Origin: a virus
Taxonomy: Duplodnaviria; Caudoviricetes
DNA length: 64,000 bases
IMG/VR virus record: IMGVR_UViG_3300046820_001270
Location: 192,001-256,000 of that record
Direction: 5' to 3' (one strand)
This document shows, piece after piece, positions 4,093 through 12,045 of the stretch (the stretch's first letter is position 1; every line of letters starts with the position of its first letter). The notes beneath the pieces are model-generated. The model ran no database searches. It worked only from the letters and a program-made list of their open reading frames with translations, and was not told where the DNA came from. Position numbers and translations under genes: made by a program.

Positions 4093-4908
4093 TTAAATTA
4101 ACATTTGCTTAAATTCCGTATCTGAAATTAATTTTTGATCATATCCAAAAAAATAAGACTCATTTGAGGTATACTGACATACTTTAGAATATTCATTTTT
4201 AGTTACTTTATCATTATAGTTTATGTTCAAATGATGTTCCCTTTGTCCATATAAATTTTTAAAATATGAATAGAATAACATAAACATAAAATTAAATTCA
4301 GCAGGAAAATCAGACAAAAACGGAAATTCTATAGTGTCAGTATTAAATGCAGTTTTTTTTAATTTATCATTAAACCCAATATTTTCTTTAATTATGGTGT
4401 TATTATTTGATTTAATAACATCGTTTATAGATTCAATTTTGATAAATTTAAAATTATTTTTAAATTTATTTTTATATAAAAGATTTAAATCTCCGTCAAG
4501 TACCTCTTCCTTAAAAAAAGAATTATCGTAAAAAAGTAATTGTGAACTCTGAGGTATGTAATGAAAATCATCACAAAATTGTAAAAATGTCCTATAATTT
4601 ATAATATACGAATTAATGTCAGTTATTTTGGAACTCCTTAAATAATCATTAATTTTTATTTTTTCCTCATGATCATTATCAAATTCAATCATTTGTTTCA
4701 TCCAAAAATATGAAGAAAAAAAACGATCAATAGGGTCTCGTGTAAAAATTATTTTTTTATCTAAAGATGTAGTTGTGTCAAATGAAAATTCAATTTCAAT
4801 TTTAAAATGTTGAAATAAATGACTTAATGTGGTATAAATTAAAGTATGTCCATTTTTAACAGGTATAAAAAAAGAGGTATTGTATTTCTTTAAATTAAGT
4901 ATTTCCAT
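4093..4908 (-). CDS. Sulfotransferase family (Sulfotransfer_2-like)
   Basis: IPVKNGHT (5'PSB-like), FTRDPIDRFFSSY (3'PB), DFHYIPQS. Confidence 0.75.
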   Translation of the reverse strand: MEILNLKKYNTSFFIPVKNGHTLIYTTLSHLFQHFKIEIEFSFDTTTSLDKKIIFTRDPIDRFFSSYFWMKQMIEFDNDHEEKIKINDYLRSSKITDINSYIINYRTFLQFCDDFHYIPQSSQLLFYDNSFFKEEVLDGDLNLLYKNKFKNNFKFIKIESINDVIKSNNNTIIKENIGFNDKLKKTAFNTDTIEFPFLSDFPAEFNFMFMLFYSYFKNLYGQREHHLNINYNDKVTKNEYSKVCQYTSNESYFFGYDQKLISDTEFKQMLI

Positions 4909-4925
4909 TATCTAATATATATCGG

Positions 4926-4997
4926 TATTCCCGACGGGATTCGAACCCGTATTACCTCCGTGAAAGGGAGGTGACCTAACCCTTAGTCGACAAGAAC
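4926..4997 (-). tRNA. tRNA-Glu(TTC)
   Basis: CCTCC-CT-TTC-AC-GGAGG anticodon arm; GGTTCGAATCC T arm. Confidence 0.9.
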
Positions 4998-5260
4998 AAA
5001 TAATCACTCAAATGGGTATTTGTTATAGTATCACAATCGGTGCACTGTACTCTGGTTAATTACTCCGTCTGTACCCAACAGCTTTATGTTGGCTTATAAT
5101 TGGCTACTTTACTATAACTCACATTTTTATTTGTGATTAAAAAAGATCCCGTTTTTTTTCTACATTTAGCCCAAGCACCAGTAGGTCAGTGTTTTGGGTT
5201 TTGACGCGAGAAGTCTACAAGGTTTCCCCATTAGACCGTTACCACGGGCAAACTCTACAG

Positions 5261-5347
5261 CGGAAGCGTAGGGATTTGAACCCCAGATACCTTTCGGTAT
5301 GCCAGTTTTCAAGACTGGTGCAATAAACCGGACTCTGCCACACTTCC
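5261..5347 (-). tRNA. tRNA-Ser(TGA)
   Basis: CCAGT-CT-TGA-AA-ACTGG; long variable arm; G73. Confidence 0.95.
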
Positions 5348-5348
5348 A

Positions 5349-5909
5349 TTATTTATTAGAAACAATATATCCATTATATTCCAATACTTGAATACATTTT
5401 TCTAAAAATTCTTCTACAGAAATGTCACTTTTCATTTTATTTATCGAAAAACTTATTAATCCCGCATTTTCTATAGTGTTTTCACCACCTTTAGATGCCG
5501 GTGTAATATGATCAATACTATATGATTTAGTCTCATATAAATTAATTGGTTCACCCGATAAATAACATTTAGGTTCGTTTCCTATTTTTAACAAAAAATC
5601 TCCTATATTAAAAGTAAGTTCAGGTTTAGTAATTGATATTTTTGAACCTTCCCTTCTTTGAAAATCTCTAACTTTACTGAGAACTCTTTTACCTAAATTA
5701 TTCCTATATCTAAAATCATATAGTTTTTTTTGTAAAATAAATTCAGGTTTAGATGTTCTTTTAATACTTCTATTTTTTGTTTTTTCTTTTTGGTTATCAC
5801 CCAAATAATATGAAATTGTCGATTTACTACAATTCAATTCTTTCATTATTTTATTATAGGTATAACCTTCTTTTTTTAATTCAATAATTCTATTTCCAAG
5901 CTCTGTCAT
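5349..5909 (-). mobile_element. Free-standing HNH homing endonuclease with N-terminal HTH
   Basis: N-terminal GYTYNKIMKELNCSKSTISYY (HTH); CYLSG...SIDHITPASKGGENTIEN...SINKMKSD (HNH). Confidence 0.85.
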
Positions 5910-5967
5910 GATATTCTTTATATATAAATATCAGGTTCGAACTAAAAAGTTAAAAATCGAACTTCTT

Positions 5968-5979
5968 ATTTCAAAGAAC
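5968..5979 (-). promoter_or_regulatory. rrn-type boxA element
   Basis: Minus strand GTTCTTTGAAAT, just downstream of tRNA-Asp. Confidence 0.55.
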
Positions 5980-5984
5980 GTTTG

Positions 5985-6058
5985 CGGAACAGACGAGACT
6001 CGAACTCGCGACCCCGGCAGTGACAGTGCCGTATTCTAACCAACTGAACTACCATTCC
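5985..6058 (-). tRNA. tRNA-Asp(GTC)
   Basis: CGGCA-CT-GTC-AC-TGCCG; canonical D and T arms. Confidence 0.95.
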
Positions 6059-6156
6059 TAATTATCACATCAAACAGGGATTCTACTTCCCGCAGCACGA
6101 AATTGTATCTTACTTAGCCCTACGTTAGCGGTATGGGTACCTGAAGATATGATTTG

Positions 6157-6232
6157 TGGGTGAGTTTGGATTCGAACCAAAGACCTAAAGTTTATGAGAC
6201 TTTTGCTCTAAAACCAGCTGAGCTACACACCC
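6157..6232 (-). tRNA. tRNA-Met or Ile2 (CAT)
   Basis: AAAGT-CT-CAT-AA-ACTTT; G1-C72, A73. Met versus lysidine-Ile2 cannot be resolved by eye. Confidence 0.9.
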
Positions 6233-6324
6233 TATTAGTCTTTTCCTTACCTCTTAATAACCACATTGCCATCCCGGTGTTACTGCCGGGTGCTTACCAC
6301 TTGCGTGGAGTGATTATCACGTTG

Positions 6325-6397
6325 CGCTCCCTGAGGGTCACGATCCCCCGACTTCAAAATTAACAGTTTTGCGCTCTACCAACTGAGCTAAGGAAGC
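6325..6397 (-). tRNA. tRNA-Asn(GTT)
   Basis: CAAAA-CT-GTT-AA-TTTTG; atypical T-loop ATCGTGA. Confidence 0.9.
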
Positions 6398-6668
6398 GTG
6401 TTTGATTCCAACCCAACTTAAGTTGCACCATCCGTGTCATGCACTGGTTAACAAAGTCCTCGTTGAGTTAGTTTCAAAAAGTTACAGGTTTTTCGTACCA
6501 TCTATGTACATCATGTCCGAGACTGATTCATGAATCGGAGGTTACTTTTCGCTTAATGGTTAATTACTCCAACTTATAGTAACTCTACTCTCACCGTTCT
6601 ACATCTAGATTCAAACGGATAGTTGAGATTCATAGACAGTGGGGTCACACCACCGTCGTCACCTGTTG

Positions 6669-6741
6669 AGCCTAAGGTCAGATTCGAACTGACGACCTGC
6701 TGATTACAAATCAGCTGCTCTACCAACTGAGCTACTCAGGC
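6669..6741 (-). tRNA. tRNA-Thr(TGT)
   Basis: GCTGA-TT-TGT-AA-TCAGC; canonical arms. Confidence 0.95.
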
Positions 6742-6758
6742 TTATTTTCTACTATTTT

Positions 6759-6770
6759 ATGTCAAAGAAC
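6759..6770 (-). promoter_or_regulatory. rrn-type boxA element
   Basis: Minus strand GTTCTTTGACAT, between the promoter (6782-6789) and tRNA-Thr. Confidence 0.65.
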
Positions 6771-6781
6771 CACTTATCTTA

Positions 6782-6789
6782 CAAAGATA
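6782..6789 (-). promoter_or_regulatory. Bacteroidota sigma70 -7 element (internal tRNA-array promoter)
   Basis: Minus strand TATCTTTG. Confidence 0.65.
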
Positions 6790-6834
6790 ATAAATAAATT
6801 CGGATATACAAAATTATTCTTAAATCTTTTTTTG

Positions 6835-6906
6835 AGGTCTCGGGTAGGGTCGAACTACCAACTTGAAATCCGTAGTTTCATGTGATCACCATTTCACCAC
6901 AAGACC
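6835..6906 (-). tRNA. tRNA-Arg(ACG)
   Basis: TGAAA-CT-ACG-GA-TTTCA; T arm GGTAG-TTCGACC-CTACC. Confidence 0.9.
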
Positions 6907-6913
6907 ATTTTAG

Positions 6914-6982
6914 TTGCGGGACCGGTAGTCGAAACCGGAAAAACACAGCTTATGAGACTGGTCGGGAACCCTCCTCCCCGCA
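6914..6982 (-). tRNA. Atypical short tRNA-Met(CAT) with fMet-like acceptor and reduced D arm
   Basis: TGCGGGG/TCCCGCA acceptor; CAGT-CTCATAA-GCTG; CCGGT-TTCGACT-ACCGG; 69 nt. Confidence 0.75.
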
Positions 6983-6986
6983 ATTT

Positions 6987-7060
6987 TGGATGTCCCTCGT
7001 GGATTCGAACCACAGCTAGATGGACCAAAACCACCTGTACTACCTCTATACTAAAGGACA
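6987..7060 (-). tRNA. tRNA-Gln(TTG), CCA encoded
   Basis: GGTGG-TT-TTG-GT-CCATC; T1-A72; 3' TCCA. Confidence 0.9.
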
Positions 7061-7065
7061 ATATG

Positions 7066-7145
7066 TACCCAAGGTCGGACTCGAACCGACACGTCTCTCG
7101 ACACGGTTTCTAAGACCGCCGTGTATCCCATTCCACCACTCGGGT
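7066..7145 (-). tRNA. tRNA-Leu(TAG)
   Basis: GCGGT-CT-TAG-AA-ACCGT; variable arm; A73. Confidence 0.95.
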
Positions 7146-7152
7146 ATTGTTG

Positions 7153-7224
7153 CACCCATGTAAGGACTCGAACCTTCATCTTCGGTTTTGGAGACCGACG
7201 TTCTACCAATTGAACTACACAGAT
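7153..7224 (-). tRNA. tRNA-Trp(CCA)
   Basis: TCGGT-CT-CCA-AA-ACCGA; G73. Confidence 0.9.
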
Positions 7225-7231
7225 ATGTTTG

Positions 7232-7307
7232 TCTAGATGGCTGGATTCGAACCAACGTGTTCTGCTTTCCAAAAGCAGCGAGAAAAGCCGGACTCCTCTA
7301 CATCTAG
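7232..7307 (-). tRNA. tRNA-Pro(TGG)
   Basis: CTGCT-TT-TGG-AA-AGCAG; C1-G72, A73. Confidence 0.9.
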
Positions 7308-7311
7308 ATAT

Positions 7312-7351
7312 AAAACAAAAAACCCCGAGATTTTTAAGTCTCAGGGTTTTT
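7312..7351 (-). terminator. Intrinsic terminator/attenuator hairpin directly upstream of the first tRNA
   Basis: Minus strand AAAAACCCTGAGA-cttaaaaa-TCTCGGGGTTTTT-TGTTTT. The G-U pair supports the minus strand. Confidence 0.75.
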
Positions 7352-7374
7352 AATATTATTAGTTAAACTTACAT

Positions 7375-7470
7375 TTAACCGTGATTAATATCTCCGAGAC
7401 ATATAGACATAGGACGATCATTCCAATTTTGTTGGTTCATCGGCGACGTTGTATATAGGTTTTGTCTCAT
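7375..7470 (-). CDS. Putative 31-aa leader peptide (MRQNLYTTSPMNQQNWNDRPMSICLGDINHG)
   Basis: Short ORF between the promoter (7501-7508) and the terminator. It contains segments complementary to the terminator 5' arm. Confidence 0.55.
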   Translation of the reverse strand: MRQNLYTTSPMNQQNWNDRPMSICLGDINHG

Positions 7471-7500
7471 TGAATTTTGTTTAATTTTTGTTTCTTTTTA

Positions 7501-7508
7501 CAAAGATA
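7501..7508 (-). promoter_or_regulatory. Bacteroidota sigma70 -7 element heading the tRNA array
   Basis: Minus strand TATCTTTG. Confidence 0.7.
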
Positions 7509-7594
7509 CATATAAATATATACATAAACAATAAAAGGTTAAAATATTTTATAATCAATTATGAATCAATCGATAAGAACTGATATTTATCAAT

Positions 7595-8110
7595 ATGACA
7601 AAAATAAAGGGACTCTCTCTCCTTTTATGTACTTTGTTCTTGGCATTCTCTTCATTTGCTCAGGACACGCAAAAAGTGTACATATCTGGCGTTGAGAATA
7701 AAATCAAGATTGGTCGTATGACATCTAACCGAAACTTGGCTTTCGGTGTTAAAAACATTTTCGAAGAAATTTTACAGGATAAGGATTTCACAATCGTAGA
7801 GGTACGTAGTGAGGCTGACGTTTTATTAAACGTTGATTTATTATTTTTTGACGTTAATAAAACTAAAAGAAACGTTTCAGTATTTCATTCTAATGTTGAA
7901 GAAACATTGGTAATAATGAAAGGTACTATCACCGATAAATCAGGTAAAAAATTAAAAGAGGTGGTGGCCGAAGAATCAAGTTCAGAAATTTCTACGTCAA
8001 CGTTAATCACTGACGAAGGAAGTGGACAAATAAACCAACAGGCATTGTCTTCAGCAATTAAGAAGACATGTGTTTCACTTGTAGATAAAATATTTTTAAA
8101 TAAGAAATGA
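7595..8110 (+). CDS. Secreted protein, probable CsgG/TolB_N/LpoB-like fold
   Basis: Sec signal peptide ending FAQ; alpha/beta pattern KVYISGVEN...GVKNIFEEIL...EADVLLNVDLL. Confidence 0.55.
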   Translation: MTKIKGLSLLLCTLFLAFSSFAQDTQKVYISGVENKIKIGRMTSNRNLAFGVKNIFEEILQDKDFTIVEVRSEADVLLNVDLLFFDVNKTKRNVSVFHSNVEETLVIMKGTITDKSGKKLKEVVAEESSSEISTSTLITDEGSGQINQQALSSAIKKTCVSLVDKIFLNKK

Positions 8111-9759
8111 AAAAACTAACATTATTAATGGGATTATTTTTATTAATGTCCCTATCATCATTCGCACAATTAACTATCAGTCAATCATTAACACCAACAA
8201 CGGGTTTAAAGGTGGGTGATACAATTACCGTTAGATATAATCTAACAAAAGGTCAGGTAATCGTAAATCCTCGTTACCTTTGGTTTAGATATCAATTTAA
8301 CAACAAGGCGTTGACTTATCTTTCAACTGAATTTAATCAGGGTGCATCTACACAAACATTCTACACAGGTTGGAACAACTATAAGTTCACACCGAATACT
8401 AATAATAACGCTAGTGATAATGAATTGAATGTTCAATATGGTTTAAGTCCATGGAATTACACAGTAAATTCGGATTGGAATGTCGGACAATTAACCATTC
8501 AAAGAGCAGACCGTTCTATTGATGGGTTACTTGCAACTCAAAAGTATATTTTAAAAGATCAAAACACATATGATAATATATTCAAAATAGATTTGGCAAC
8601 AGGTACCGATACAACTGGTGCTGTTGTTGGAACTATCTTTGGTGGTGGGTGGTCATCCATATCTAATGTAGTTGGTAACACGTCACAATTCAAAGTTAGA
8701 GTGTTATTCCCACAAGGATATACGATTAGCGACCACAATGTTCAATTGATGAGATTGAAAACAGATGGTAGTGGTGACATTGATTGGTCACAACAACCAA
8801 TTACACAAAAAGCGTTGGATGCAAGTGGTGAAGCAATATTCACATCAGGTGTTAAAGTTGGTGATTCGGTTGGTGTATTTATATCACCCGCATCACAAAA
8901 GACTTGGATGAATAATGTAATCACAGTTTCAGATGCATATAAAGCATTCTTAGGTCATTCTCAAACTGATATTAGTGGAACCGCAAACTTCTTTACAAGA
9001 CCTGTTTTAGAAAGAAAAATAGGTAATGTAACAAAAAATGATATGACATTCAACGAAGCTGACTCATATAACTTATTTGCATATGTAATCGGACAAGATG
9101 TATCAATAAATGCATTCATTCCGACATCAACTGCAACTTCTTGGAGATGGCATAGTGGTTTATTAAATCAAAGTTGGTTAGATGGTGTTACTAAAAATAG
9201 AGTATTAGTTACAGCACCATCACAAACTGTTGATGCGGTATTTGCATGGGCAGGTGACTTAAACTGGTCACACTCATCTCATCCTGACACAATTGCAACT
9301 AGAATTACACAAGGTAATTTTACAAACTCAGTAAACGATAGAAACTTCCAATCACTTTCAGTGAAATCAATGTCATATACTCAACCTACATTTGAAAAAA
9401 TGACATTGGGTATTAACTCTACTTTAGAAAATGGTAAAGTTGTATTAACTACAACATTAACAAAAGAAGGATTGGCAGGTTTACAAGTTATTATGAATTA
9501 TGACGAAAGTAAATTAACGTTGGATAATGTTTCATTTGATGCGGGATCTACAATTACAAACTTCTCAACTCGTGATGGTAATAGATTAACATTTGGTTCA
9601 ATTGATCAAATGAAAACTGCGAGAATTAAAGTAGGGACACCGTATAAATTAATTTTCACCCCTAAAGTTCAATTAACAAATACCGCAGGTTTATTCTTCT
9701 TTGTATTAGCAGACGCGGTTGATGGTTTGGGTAAGAAAATTGATTTGACAATAGAATAA
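8107..9759 (+). CDS. Secreted protein with N- and C-terminal cohesin-like domains and a central dockerin-like region
   Basis: Signal peptide; LKVGDTITVRYNL...WFRYQFNNKALTY; ITVSDAY...GNVTKNDMTFNEADSY; GLQVIMNYDESKLTL. Confidence 0.65.
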   Translation: MKKLTLLMGLFLLMSLSSFAQLTISQSLTPTTGLKVGDTITVRYNLTKGQVIVNPRYLWFRYQFNNKALTYLSTEFNQGASTQTFYTGWNNYKFTPNTNNNASDNELNVQYGLSPWNYTVNSDWNVGQLTIQRADRSIDGLLATQKYILKDQNTYDNIFKIDLATGTDTTGAVVGTIFGGGWSSISNVVGNTSQFKVRVLFPQGYTISDHNVQLMRLKTDGSGDIDWSQQPITQKALDASGEAIFTSGVKVGDSVGVFISPASQKTWMNNVITVSDAYKAFLGHSQTDISGTANFFTRPVLERKIGNVTKNDMTFNEADSYNLFAYVIGQDVSINAFIPTSTATSWRWHSGLLNQSWLDGVTKNRVLVTAPSQTVDAVFAWAGDLNWSHSSHPDTIATRITQGNFTNSVNDRNFQSLSVKSMSYTQPTFEKMTLGINSTLENGKVVLTTTLTKEGLAGLQVIMNYDESKLTLDNVSFDAGSTITNFSTRDGNRLTFGSIDQMKTARIKVGTPYKLIFTPKVQLTNTAGLFFFVLADAVDGLGKKIDLTIE

Positions 9760-9762
9760 TTT

Positions 9763-12045
9763 ATGAAAAAACTATTAGTAGTATTATTTTTATTTATATC
9801 ATTTTTAGGGTTCGGACAGAGTGTATCTGCTCCGGACTCTAAATCGTTTATACCATCCACAACTGCACAAGATGGAAGTGGATTCGTATTAAGTGGATTT
9901 AGTGCAACATCTACTTTGTTAGCATCAATCAGTTTAATAAATCCATCAACAAATACTACATTTTATTTAACTACAACAACGGGTTTAACTGCAGCAAGTG
10001 GATTTACTTTAAGTGGTAACAAAACTCGTTTGGTTGTAACGGGAACGATGGCTAATATCAATACCGCATTGGAATCGTTAAAAGTTAATACAGGTTCAGT
10101 AGTAGGTAATGTTCAATTATCAGTAGCGGCAACTGTCAACCCCGTTGGGTATTTCTACAATGGTGTTAATGGACACTTTTATAGACCTATATCAACCGGA
10201 GCAACTTATACAAATGCAAGAACACTATCATCTCAACAAACATTCAAAGGACAGACAGGATATTTGGTAACAATTACTTCTGCGGATGAAGATGCTTTTA
10301 TATTTGCTAATGTTCCACAAGCTAGTATTTGGTTTGCATTAACCGATGAAGCAAGTGAAGCTAGATGGACAATCGATGCTGGTCCTGAAAACGGAACTCT
10401 AATTAAAATCAATAACGGACAACTAAACGGAAACATTCCTGGTCAATATAACAACTGGGCACCTGGTGAACCAAACAATAGTGGTAACGAAGATTATGCA
10501 GTAACTAAATGGGGTGGAGGTTCTCAATGGAACGATTTACCAAATCATTTTAGTTGTGCTTATGTAGTTGAATTTGGAACTTGGACTAACCCTGATGACC
10601 AAACATTTACAGAATTTTATACTAATAGTGTAACTCACTCAAACGGAGAAGTATTAAGAGCATCATTCAATGTAGATTTTGGAACTAATGTAGATGAAAC
10701 TAAATTTACAGCAAAAGGATACACATATACTAACAACACATGGAATATAGTAAACGGAACTGCTAGACAATTGAGTGGATTGGGTAAAGTTGATTTAACT
10801 ACCTTATTAGATACTAATAAAATTGCTGGAAATGGATATAGAGCAACAACCTCTACCGGACAAGTTGAATGGGCAATAATAAATCCATATAATGAAACTT
10901 TGGGTGGCCATCAATTATTAATAGACGAAAGAGAATTCGACGGAACAGGGGTATCCCCAAATAATGTAACATCAATTAAATTATTTGACATATACGATGG
11001 ACCAGTTAGTGTTAATAGTGTAAGTGGATGGTGGAAAACATATGTAATTCCTGGCAATTTGACAACCAAAATAACTTCATCTACGTTTCAAGCTCAATTA
11101 AGATTACAAGATGGTTGGTATGGAACAAGAGCCGAATTTACTTTCTCACCAATAATGTCATACAAATCACATGGAATAGAATTATCTCATTCAAATCAAA
11201 CTGAGTTAAACACATTGTATAGTAGTATTGTGAGTGTGGCTGATGTATATTTAGCATTCAAAGAATTAGCAGATAGGGGTATATTAGGAAATCAAAGTGG
11301 ATTAGGTTTGACAAATGGTATTCAGTATTTGAATGCAGATGTGGATGGGAATGGGGTATTCAATGAAGCGGATACCTACAAATTATTACAACATCTAACA
11401 GGAGTTCAATCACTTTCACAATCCACTGCATTAACTTATTTAATGAAGTTATACAATAAATCAGCATATGATACAATAACAACATCGAATTGGGGAACTC
11501 AATTTAATTACACTCGTAACTTAATTCCATTTACATTAACTAGTTTGAATAACACATATAATTTAAGTGTAACTTGGTTAGGTGATGTAAACTTATCACA
11601 TTCAGCACAACAAAGTGTAAGTAGTGTTGCAACTAATTCATATAGAAGTATGAGTGTATTTTCATCACCGATATCAAATGAAATCAATGCATCAATCTTA
11701 ACTGAAATGATTGGTGATAGTGTTTATGCATATATCACAATTGACCCAATAGGACAAGAATTGGTAGGAACACAATTCAAATTAAATTACGATAATAGTT
11801 TATTGAAATTTAACAATGTAAGTTTCAAAACAAAAGGTTTTCCTACAAATTATGGAACTGACAAAGGTGATTATATCAATTTAGGTTCTTTAATTACGGA
11901 TGGTGGAATTTTGGATAATACAACTGAATATAGAATATCATTCACATCAAAAACAAAATTGGATAACATATTAGGATTGATTTCAGTAGATACAACGGAT
12001 GCGGTTAGTAAAGATGGTAAACAATTAAAAGTAAAAATAAAATAA
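9763..12045 (+). CDS. Secreted C-type lectin + dockerin-like + cohesin-like protein
   Basis: NGHFYR...YLVTITSADED...NWAPGEPNNSGNEDY...WNDL (CTL); ADVDGNGVFNEADTYKLLQHL (dockerin); GTQFKLNYDNSLLKF (cohesin). Confidence 0.75.
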   Translation: MKKLLVVLFLFISFLGFGQSVSAPDSKSFIPSTTAQDGSGFVLSGFSATSTLLASISLINPSTNTTFYLTTTTGLTAASGFTLSGNKTRLVVTGTMANINTALESLKVNTGSVVGNVQLSVAATVNPVGYFYNGVNGHFYRPISTGATYTNARTLSSQQTFKGQTGYLVTITSADEDAFIFANVPQASIWFALTDEASEARWTIDAGPENGTLIKINNGQLNGNIPGQYNNWAPGEPNNSGNEDYAVTKWGGGSQWNDLPNHFSCAYVVEFGTWTNPDDQTFTEFYTNSVTHSNGEVLRASFNVDFGTNVDETKFTAKGYTYTNNTWNIVNGTARQLSGLGKVDLTTLLDTNKIAGNGYRATTSTGQVEWAIINPYNETLGGHQLLIDEREFDGTGVSPNNVTSIKLFDIYDGPVSVNSVSGWWKTYVIPGNLTTKITSSTFQAQLRLQDGWYGTRAEFTFSPIMSYKSHGIELSHSNQTELNTLYSSIVSVADVYLAFKELADRGILGNQSGLGLTNGIQYLNADVDGNGVFNEADTYKLLQHLTGVQSLSQSTALTYLMKLYNKSAYDTITTSNWGTQFNYTRNLIPFTLTSLNNTYNLSVTWLGDVNLSHSAQQSVSSVATNSYRSMSVFSSPISNEINASILTEMIGDSVYAYITIDPIGQELVGTQFKLNYDNSLLKFNNVSFKTKGFPTNYGTDKGDYINLGSLITDGGILDNTTEYRISFTSKTKLDNILGLISVDTTDAVSKDGKQLKVKIK

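Follow-up and report, generated by a model that had tools for sequence, protein, structure and literature searches.

The purpose of phage tRNAs has been debated for decades, with codon compensation on one side and insurance against the destruction of host tRNAs on the other, and to our knowledge the control that phages exert over their own tRNA genes is essentially unknown. The locus described here raises this question directly. In a window of 64,000 nucleotides (positions 192,001 to 256,000 of the IMG/VR record IMGVR_UViG_3300046820_001270), an array of 11 tRNA genes is preceded by a short open reading frame (ORF) and a strong terminator, and it has to be asked what decides whether RNA polymerase enters the array. 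The window originates from a large uncultured freshwater phage and contains a terminase, a ClpB-like ATPase and a radical-SAM gene; the closest TerL of a cultured phage is at most 31% identical.

The leader module is located on the minus strand, in the gap that separates the tRNA array from a divergent gene for a lipoprotein-like protein (7595–8110, plus strand). The initial annotation had described a promoter, a leader ORF, pairing segments, a terminator and the first tRNA, all of which were found in place, and three pairings, namely segment 1 with segment 2 (1:2), segment 2 with segment 3 (2:3) and segment 3 with segment 4 (3:4), which are present in the window as written. The features, including those of the array itself, are as follows.

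7529–7531 (−): TTG, −33-like element of the leader promoter; in the window, as in the homologues, 20 nt separate it from the −7 box downstream
7501–7508 (−): −7 box TATCTTTG of the TAnnTTTG type, seen in the window sequence
7471–7494 (−): A-rich 5′ UTR without a Shine-Dalgarno sequence, with the presumed transcript start; A-rich in all homologues
7375–7470 (−): leader ORF of 31 codons plus stop, MRQNLYTTSPMNQQNWNDRPMSICLGDINHG; ATG at 7470, stop codon at 7377–7375
7405–7467 (−): putative sensor codons 2–22, mirroring the tRNA array; 17 of 22 decodable by the 11 downstream tRNAs
7463–7469 (−): segment 1, TGAGACA, which overlaps the start codon; in the minimum-energy fold it is paired to segment 2
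7394–7400 (−): segment 2, GTCTCGG, codons 24–26; pairs with segment 3
7352–7392 (−): middle hairpin containing the stop codon, stacked under 2:3; from folding of the window leader and 61 homologues
7338–7346 (−): segment 3, CCCTGAGAC, 5′ arm of the terminator and partner in the antiterminator; from pairing and covariation
7339–7346 (−): terminator 5′ arm, CCCTGAGA, within segment 3
7323–7330 (−): segment 4, TCTCGGGG, terminator 3′ arm; from its pairing with segment 3
7312–7322 (−): T tract of the terminator, seen in the window sequence
6834–7307 (−): tRNAs reached only via the putative attenuator, Pro(UGG), Trp(CCA), Leu(UAG), Gln(UUG) and Arg(ACG)
6759–6790 (−): internal promoter TATCTTTG (box at 6790–6783) and boxA-like element GTTCTTTGA ahead of tRNA-Thr
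4924–6741 (−): distal tRNAs Thr, Asn, Met, Asp, Ser and Glu, with an HNH ORF inside

As outlined above, an intrinsic terminator consisting of a hairpin and a T tract (7346–7312) lies between the leader ORF and the tRNA genes, and tRNA-Pro starts at 7307, only 4 nt beyond the T tract. The promoter elements at 7531–7501 were assigned from established knowledge of the TTG/TAnnTTTG arrangement, which we take to be the Bacteroidota promoter type. Judging from its sequence, the second promoter at 6790 bypasses the attenuator and would drive the tRNAs from Thr to Glu independently.

The phages most closely related by the flanking protein (L001, L002 and L004, 88–99% identity) are without the leader module and carry a promoter and a boxA-like element directly before tRNA-Thr. 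This design is identical to that of the internal promoter and boxA-like element of the window (6790–6759), and the array of the window can therefore be read as an attenuator-headed unit (Pro-Trp-Leu-Gln-Arg) placed before a leaderless unit (Thr to Glu). Adjacent tRNA units are headed here by two different solutions, a leader ORF in one case and a boxA-like element in the other.

Related leaders, reading frame and pairings

Relatives of the leader were gathered with two kinds of query, the neighbouring protein and DNA patterns. In IMG/VR and metagenome contigs 67 distinct leader ORFs, either homologous or analogous, were found to share the same architecture: each of them is followed within 300 nt by a tRNA array on the same strand, and most of them have a −7 box of the same type 25–31 nt before the ATG. 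Homologous leaders precede the tRNA arrays of about 60 different phage sequences from metagenomes, and an alignment of 61 homologous leaders (A1) is the source of all pairing and gap counts given in the following. For comparison, 185,579 prokaryote species genomes were scanned with segment 2 plus the terminator, and no copy was found; the sole match was the terminator of a 5S rRNA in a gammaproteobacterial metagenome-assembled genome, which is unrelated. Searches of cultured-phage DNA with the window leader and with the leader families A and E gave tRNA matches only, or nothing. A 15-mer pattern around the start codon, applied to viral contigs, returned at least 116 mostly chance matches and was rejected as too unspecific; it merely supplied additional DNA for screening.

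The leader ORF is 30 to 32 codons long in the 61 homologues and its reading frame is kept in all of them. All 23 gap runs within codons 1–26 are 3 nt long; downstream of these codons the gap lengths vary between 1 and 10 nt, with 107 runs of 1 nt, 62 of 2 nt and 53 of 3 nt. Furthermore, the distance from the end of segment 2 to the stop codon is either 13 or 16 nt and the distance from the stop codon to segment 3 is 21–30 nt. Because of these spacings a ribosome at the stop codon, with its footprint size taken from the literature, would sit against segment 2 or cover part of it and would open the middle hairpin, and it would not reach the terminator. Conservation of the leader ORF in related phages, on which the initial annotation had made its proposal depend, is thus borne out by the frame, by the codon-sized indels and by the spacing between ORF and segments. 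As expected for an attenuator, the ORF appears to be coding, and it is presumably translated.

Conservation of the pairings had been named as a further touchstone, and here the outcome was divided: 3:4 and 2:3 are conserved with compensatory changes, and 1:2 is not a general feature. The terminator pairing 3:4 is formed in 100% of the cells of the 61 leaders, with compensatory CG/UA changes at two pairs (in 24 and 20 cells). For the antiterminator 2:3 the value is 98.8% (61 leaders), again with compensatory changes at two pairs, this time of the GC/AU type; one variable pair is GC in 32, GU in 19 and AU in 10 leaders, another one AU in 31 and GC in 25. The covariation score of 2:3 was reached by none of 500 shuffles, and slid controls paired in at most 55%. 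In total, 22 haplotypes of segments 2, 3 and 4 were distinguished, and all seven of the seven 2:3 pairs are kept in 56 of the 61 sequences. Since these pairs are kept while the codon bearing the variable bases (codon 26) reads D, G, E, S, K or R, the constraint must act on the RNA and not on the peptide.

The pairing 1:2 is formed in 90.6% of the cells and broken in 5 of the 61 sequences. It is invariant within the alignment, and there is no counterpart to it in the other leader families; because it never covaries and is absent from these families, we regard 1:2 as optional. Analogues of segment 2 are present in unrelated leader families, and in a further family a concerted change was found, in which segment 2 turns from TGTTCGG to AGTTCGG, segment 3 from CCGAACA to CCGAACT and the 3′ arm of the terminator likewise. 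The middle hairpin has a median energy of −7.1 kcal/mol and a median z of −2.25 over the 61 homologues, whose stem sequences differ.

Several variants of the module were observed among the relatives. One contig (L153) carries three different leader ORF/terminator modules (~2254–2400, ~10053–10200 and ~11780–11954), each of them before a different tRNA block. A second leader family of 34–36 codons, with the terminator arm GACCCGAACA and the segment 2 TGTTCGG, is found in L226 at ~2380–2530 and also in L154, L187, L171, L140, L248, L115, L236, L246 and L068; it precedes a distal block starting with Leu(UAA)-Arg(UCU)-Pro-Asn, and about 62–66 nt of further RNA are located between its terminator and the first tRNA. 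Straight after the terminator of family A, a divergent tRNA-like sequence is found in L226 (457–526) and at the same place in L006, L008 and L011; it has an apparent UGC anticodon, scores 29.7 bits, which is barely above the Rfam threshold, and is missed by ARAGORN. In L129, L132 and L133 (L132 8504–8697 and upstream) the leader ORF carries an in-frame N-terminal extension of 25 codons. The extended ORF of 57 codons begins 8 nt past the −7 box; this extended start being ambiguous, the internal start was used for the three leaders. Their canonical start is altered to ATGAAACAA, which breaks 1:2, and an upstream ATGAGAT could, by its sequence, replace segment 1.

Leader codons and the downstream tRNA blocks

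The leader codons upstream of segment 2 match the tRNAs that are encoded downstream. For the window, a share of decodable sensor codons as high as that listed above has a probability of P = 0.0014 when compared with 100,000 random segments of the same length from phage ORFs. In each of seven leader families, whose peptides differ, the leader matches the tRNA block that it precedes, with P values between 0.045 and 4 × 10−5, which combine to P = 6 × 10−14 according to Fisher's method. For 57 leader/array pairs an amino-acid match of 0.607 was obtained, compared with 0.48 for shuffled pairings (reached in 0 of 5000), and at the codon level one of 0.532 compared with 0.403. If a tRNA is present in the array, its amino acid is almost always found in the leader (Lys 28/28, Cys 36/36, His 33/33, Pro 22/24), and leaders of arrays lacking a given tRNA are mostly devoid of its amino acid (Pro present in 0/33, Cys in 5/21). 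Because the leaders are phylogenetically related within families, cell counts overstate the independent events, and the independent evidence is given by the comparisons between families and within contigs.

The latter comparison is most direct in contigs with more than one leader. In L153 the leader before Arg-Leu-Gln-Leu is rich in R, L and Q, that before Lys-Ile-Ile-His-Val in K, I, V and H, and that before Tyr-Pro-Ser-Trp-Cys in S, W, Y, P and C. Two leaders per contig occur in L226 and in eight other contigs. In the proximal leader of the L226 type Arg is encoded by CGY and Ser by TCR, and the block contains Arg(ACG) and Ser(UGA); in the distal leader Arg is AGA and Ser is AGT, and the block contains Arg(UCU) and Ser(GCU). 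Leaders within one contig match their own block down to the isoacceptor.

Furthermore, the mirror depends on position: matches were counted at 86 of 145 sensor codons, compared with 17 of 56 codons in the final eight positions (P = 2.7 × 10−4). The mirrored codons constitute the zone in which a stalled ribosome would leave segment 2 free. The match is incomplete in the window, where Tyr, Ile and Cys codons of the leader have no tRNA and tRNA-Glu has no Glu codon, and in L180, L236, L211 and L248 the arrays have lost Ile-Phe-Lys and kept the old leader. Sensor codons are mostly single with few tandem runs, and each stall may therefore be weak.

Proposed switch, its alternatives and known systems

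With the parts of the module, its two alternative helices, the preserved frame and the codon–tRNA mirror established by sequence comparison, the leader-peptide attenuator over the tRNA operon that the initial annotation had proposed gains support from this frame and this mirror, from the compensatory changes in 3:4 and 2:3 and from the spacing. We consider it probable that the module is a ribosome-mediated transcription attenuator, which responds to the speed of decoding and adjusts the supply of tRNA by feedback.

The window leader folds with −43.8 kcal/mol (z = −4.46; none of 200 shuffles was as good), and its minimum-energy fold consists of 1:2 plus the terminator. In equilibrium folding the terminator surpasses 2:3 in stability by 4–11 kcal/mol, also when the leader carries a ribosome. 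As the terminator always wins at equilibrium, the switch has to be a kinetic one. Equilibrium calculations with ribosome footprints cannot reveal such a switch, and consequently the folding of the nascent transcript was analyzed. For a nascent RNA that exposes segment 3 and not yet segment 4, 1:2 forms when no ribosome is present, and 2:3 forms once a ribosome footprint is introduced whose P site occupies any one of the codons 2–20.

The attenuator would work in the following way. Transcription would start at the TAnnTTTG promoter and the A-rich leader would be translated at once, with codons 2–22 serving as a test peptide that samples the codons read by the downstream tRNAs. As long as these tRNAs are plentiful, the ribosome would cover segment 2 (codons 24–26), melt the middle hairpin and halt 16 nt past segment 2; with segment 2 covered, 2:3 would be prevented, the 3:4 terminator would form and RNA polymerase would be released 4 nt before tRNA-Pro. 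If any sampled tRNA became scarce, be it early in infection, by heavy codon demand of the phage or by cleavage of host tRNAs, the ribosome would lag within codons 2–20, 2:3 would pair once segment 3 emerges, segment 4 would stay single-stranded and the polymerase would enter the tRNA block. The outcome would be a negative feedback on tRNA supply. For leaders of the window's family, a transcript carrying no ribosome would sequester segment 2 in 1:2 and terminate. In this scheme we infer that the leader is translated, which way the switch turns, how its kinetics run and what triggers it physiologically, and we assume that transcription and translation are coupled in the presumed Bacteroidota host. 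Regarding the trigger, depletion or cleavage of host tRNAs had been suggested initially; a demand-driven feedback would fit equally well. In metatranscriptome contigs the depth over the locus stems almost entirely from other organisms, whose tRNA-Trp sequence is conserved; 7228–7334 is spanned by one low-depth contig and 7406–7498 by another one, with ends and strand invisible and DNA carry-over possible.

Three other explanations have to be weighed against the attenuator. A conserved, in-frame ORF that is followed by a strong terminator, together with an internal promoter available for the distal tRNAs, is what would be found if the ORF encoded an ordinary small protein and the terminator belonged to that gene, the tRNAs being transcribed by constitutive leaky read-through or from other promoters without any regulation. 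However, the 4 nt between the terminator and tRNA-Pro leave no space for a promoter, and the peptides are wholly different between the families, yet each of them mirrors its own tRNA block. Radical changes of codon 26 with the base pairs kept, and the covariation of segment 2 with the terminator arm, likewise speak against it, and we hold this explanation to be very unlikely. If, on the other hand, the strong fold, the conserved hairpins and the position next to the tRNAs are emphasized, an untranslated structured RNA might be envisaged, for example a riboswitch or a T-box-like element binding a tRNA or another ligand, or a processing or pause element in precursor maturation, with the ORF being incidental. 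Against such an RNA, no Rfam family was matched at its threshold: the His_leader model (RF00514) scored 25.4 bits (E = 0.36) against a gathering threshold of 49, so that the module is not a member, and the T-box covariance model had no match at E of 1 or less within 4500–8200. Moreover, the codon-sized indels are confined to codons 1–26 of the ORF, and the mirror, which is limited to the codons upstream of segment 2, reaches the isoacceptor level over ten or more amino acids and could not be read by a single specifier. A purely structural role is hence hardly probable.

It could also be argued that the ORF only couples a ribosome to RNA polymerase and thereby protects the tRNA transcript, which is untranslated, against Rho or pausing, the hairpin being a pause or processing signal and not a conditional terminator. 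The leaderless unit with its boxA-like element in place of the leader is in line with this idea, suggesting that tRNA units need protection from premature termination. But the stop codon lies 21–30 nt before the hairpin, so that the ribosome cannot follow the polymerase into the tRNAs, and a hairpin followed by 6 or more T residues is the canonical form of an intrinsic terminator; since, in addition, mere coupling leaves both the 2:3 covariation and the codon mirror unexplained, it appears very unlikely.

The attenuator reading places the module next to the attenuators whose leader peptides control operons of amino-acid biosynthesis (trp, his, leu, thr, pheA, ilv), and four features of the trp/his class are found by sequence comparison: a coding short ORF, a terminator, a mutually exclusive antiterminator and codons matching the product. 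In both cases the short ORF is promoter-proximal, its codons are regulatory (putatively so in the phage) and the antiterminator makes use of the 5′ arm of an intrinsic terminator; a candidate anti-antiterminator, 1:2, is present in the window's leader family. As in the trp attenuator, whose choice is kinetic, the terminator is more stable than the antiterminator, hence the kinetic control. In contrast to the trp/his class, however, to which no similarity in sequence is seen, the phage module would regulate tRNAs instead of enzymes, its putative sensor comprises 10 or more different codons mirroring the block instead of a run of a single codon, segment 1 overlaps the start codon and segment 2 lies upstream of the stop codon, and tRNA abundance is presumably sensed instead of amino-acid supply.

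Other known systems share single aspects. The attenuator of E. coli pheST (phenylalanyl-tRNA synthetase) with its pheM leader also controls a component of the translation apparatus in response to the state of tRNA, but it senses one amino acid and tRNA and its output is a synthetase, whereas the phage module would sense many and its output is tRNA genes. T-boxes likewise sense tRNA status through the choice between terminator and antiterminator in a leader; they bind one uncharged tRNA without translation and regulate synthetase or amino-acid genes, whereas the evidence for the phage leader favours translation. With boxA/Nus antitermination of rRNA–tRNA operons the module has in common the control of read-through into stable-RNA units, but boxA/Nus is constitutive and protein-mediated and involves neither an ORF nor codon sensing. 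In passages of one report phage tRNAs are viewed as replacements for host tRNAs that were cleaved or degraded (PMC10264068); compared with the view taken in these passages, the phage leader is proposed here to be a sensor of demand.

In the literature searched, no description was found of attenuation of tRNA genes or operons in either phages or bacteria, which agrees with the initial remark that none was known for a phage tRNA array. Beyond the single locus, we lean towards a family of programmable tRNA homeostats in large freshwater phages: each block would have a leader acting as its codon checklist, the phage would gauge the speed of decoding tRNA by tRNA, and a block would be transcribed only upon shortage of one of its tRNAs, including depletion by host anticodon nucleases or by phage-induced host shut-off, and the modules would be exchanged and re-matched by selection. 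A test peptide listing the codons of the downstream tRNAs implies a demand-controlled tRNA supply and would make the leader a directly testable read-out of the codons that are limiting for the phage. Leader-peptide attenuation, known from amino-acid metabolism, would thereby be extended to stable-RNA genes, and the sensing of a single codon to that of many. Such a module would rank among the very few attenuators proposed for Bacteroidota-type systems and would represent a natural, modular sensor of decoding speed, which could be re-programmed.

Further elements of the locus

The distal part of the tRNA array contains an HNH endonuclease ORF with an N-terminal helix-turn-helix (5349–5909, minus strand), which is located between tRNA-Asp and tRNA-Ser; the arrays of the relatives differ through insertions at gaps like this one. 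Downstream of the array a GOLLD RNA (Rfam RF02032, 298.5 bits, E = 5 × 10−86) was identified at 1303–1709 on the minus strand, which probably extends to about 2110. It has its own TATCTTTG promoter at 2174–2167, followed by a boxA-like element GTTCTTTGA at 2135–2126.

On the other side of the leader, a divergent operon (7595–12045, plus strand) begins with the lipoprotein-like protein of 171 amino acids (7595–8110), for which no family match was obtained. The operon continues with secreted proteins of 550 and 760 amino acids, the latter of which shows a weak match to C-type lectins.
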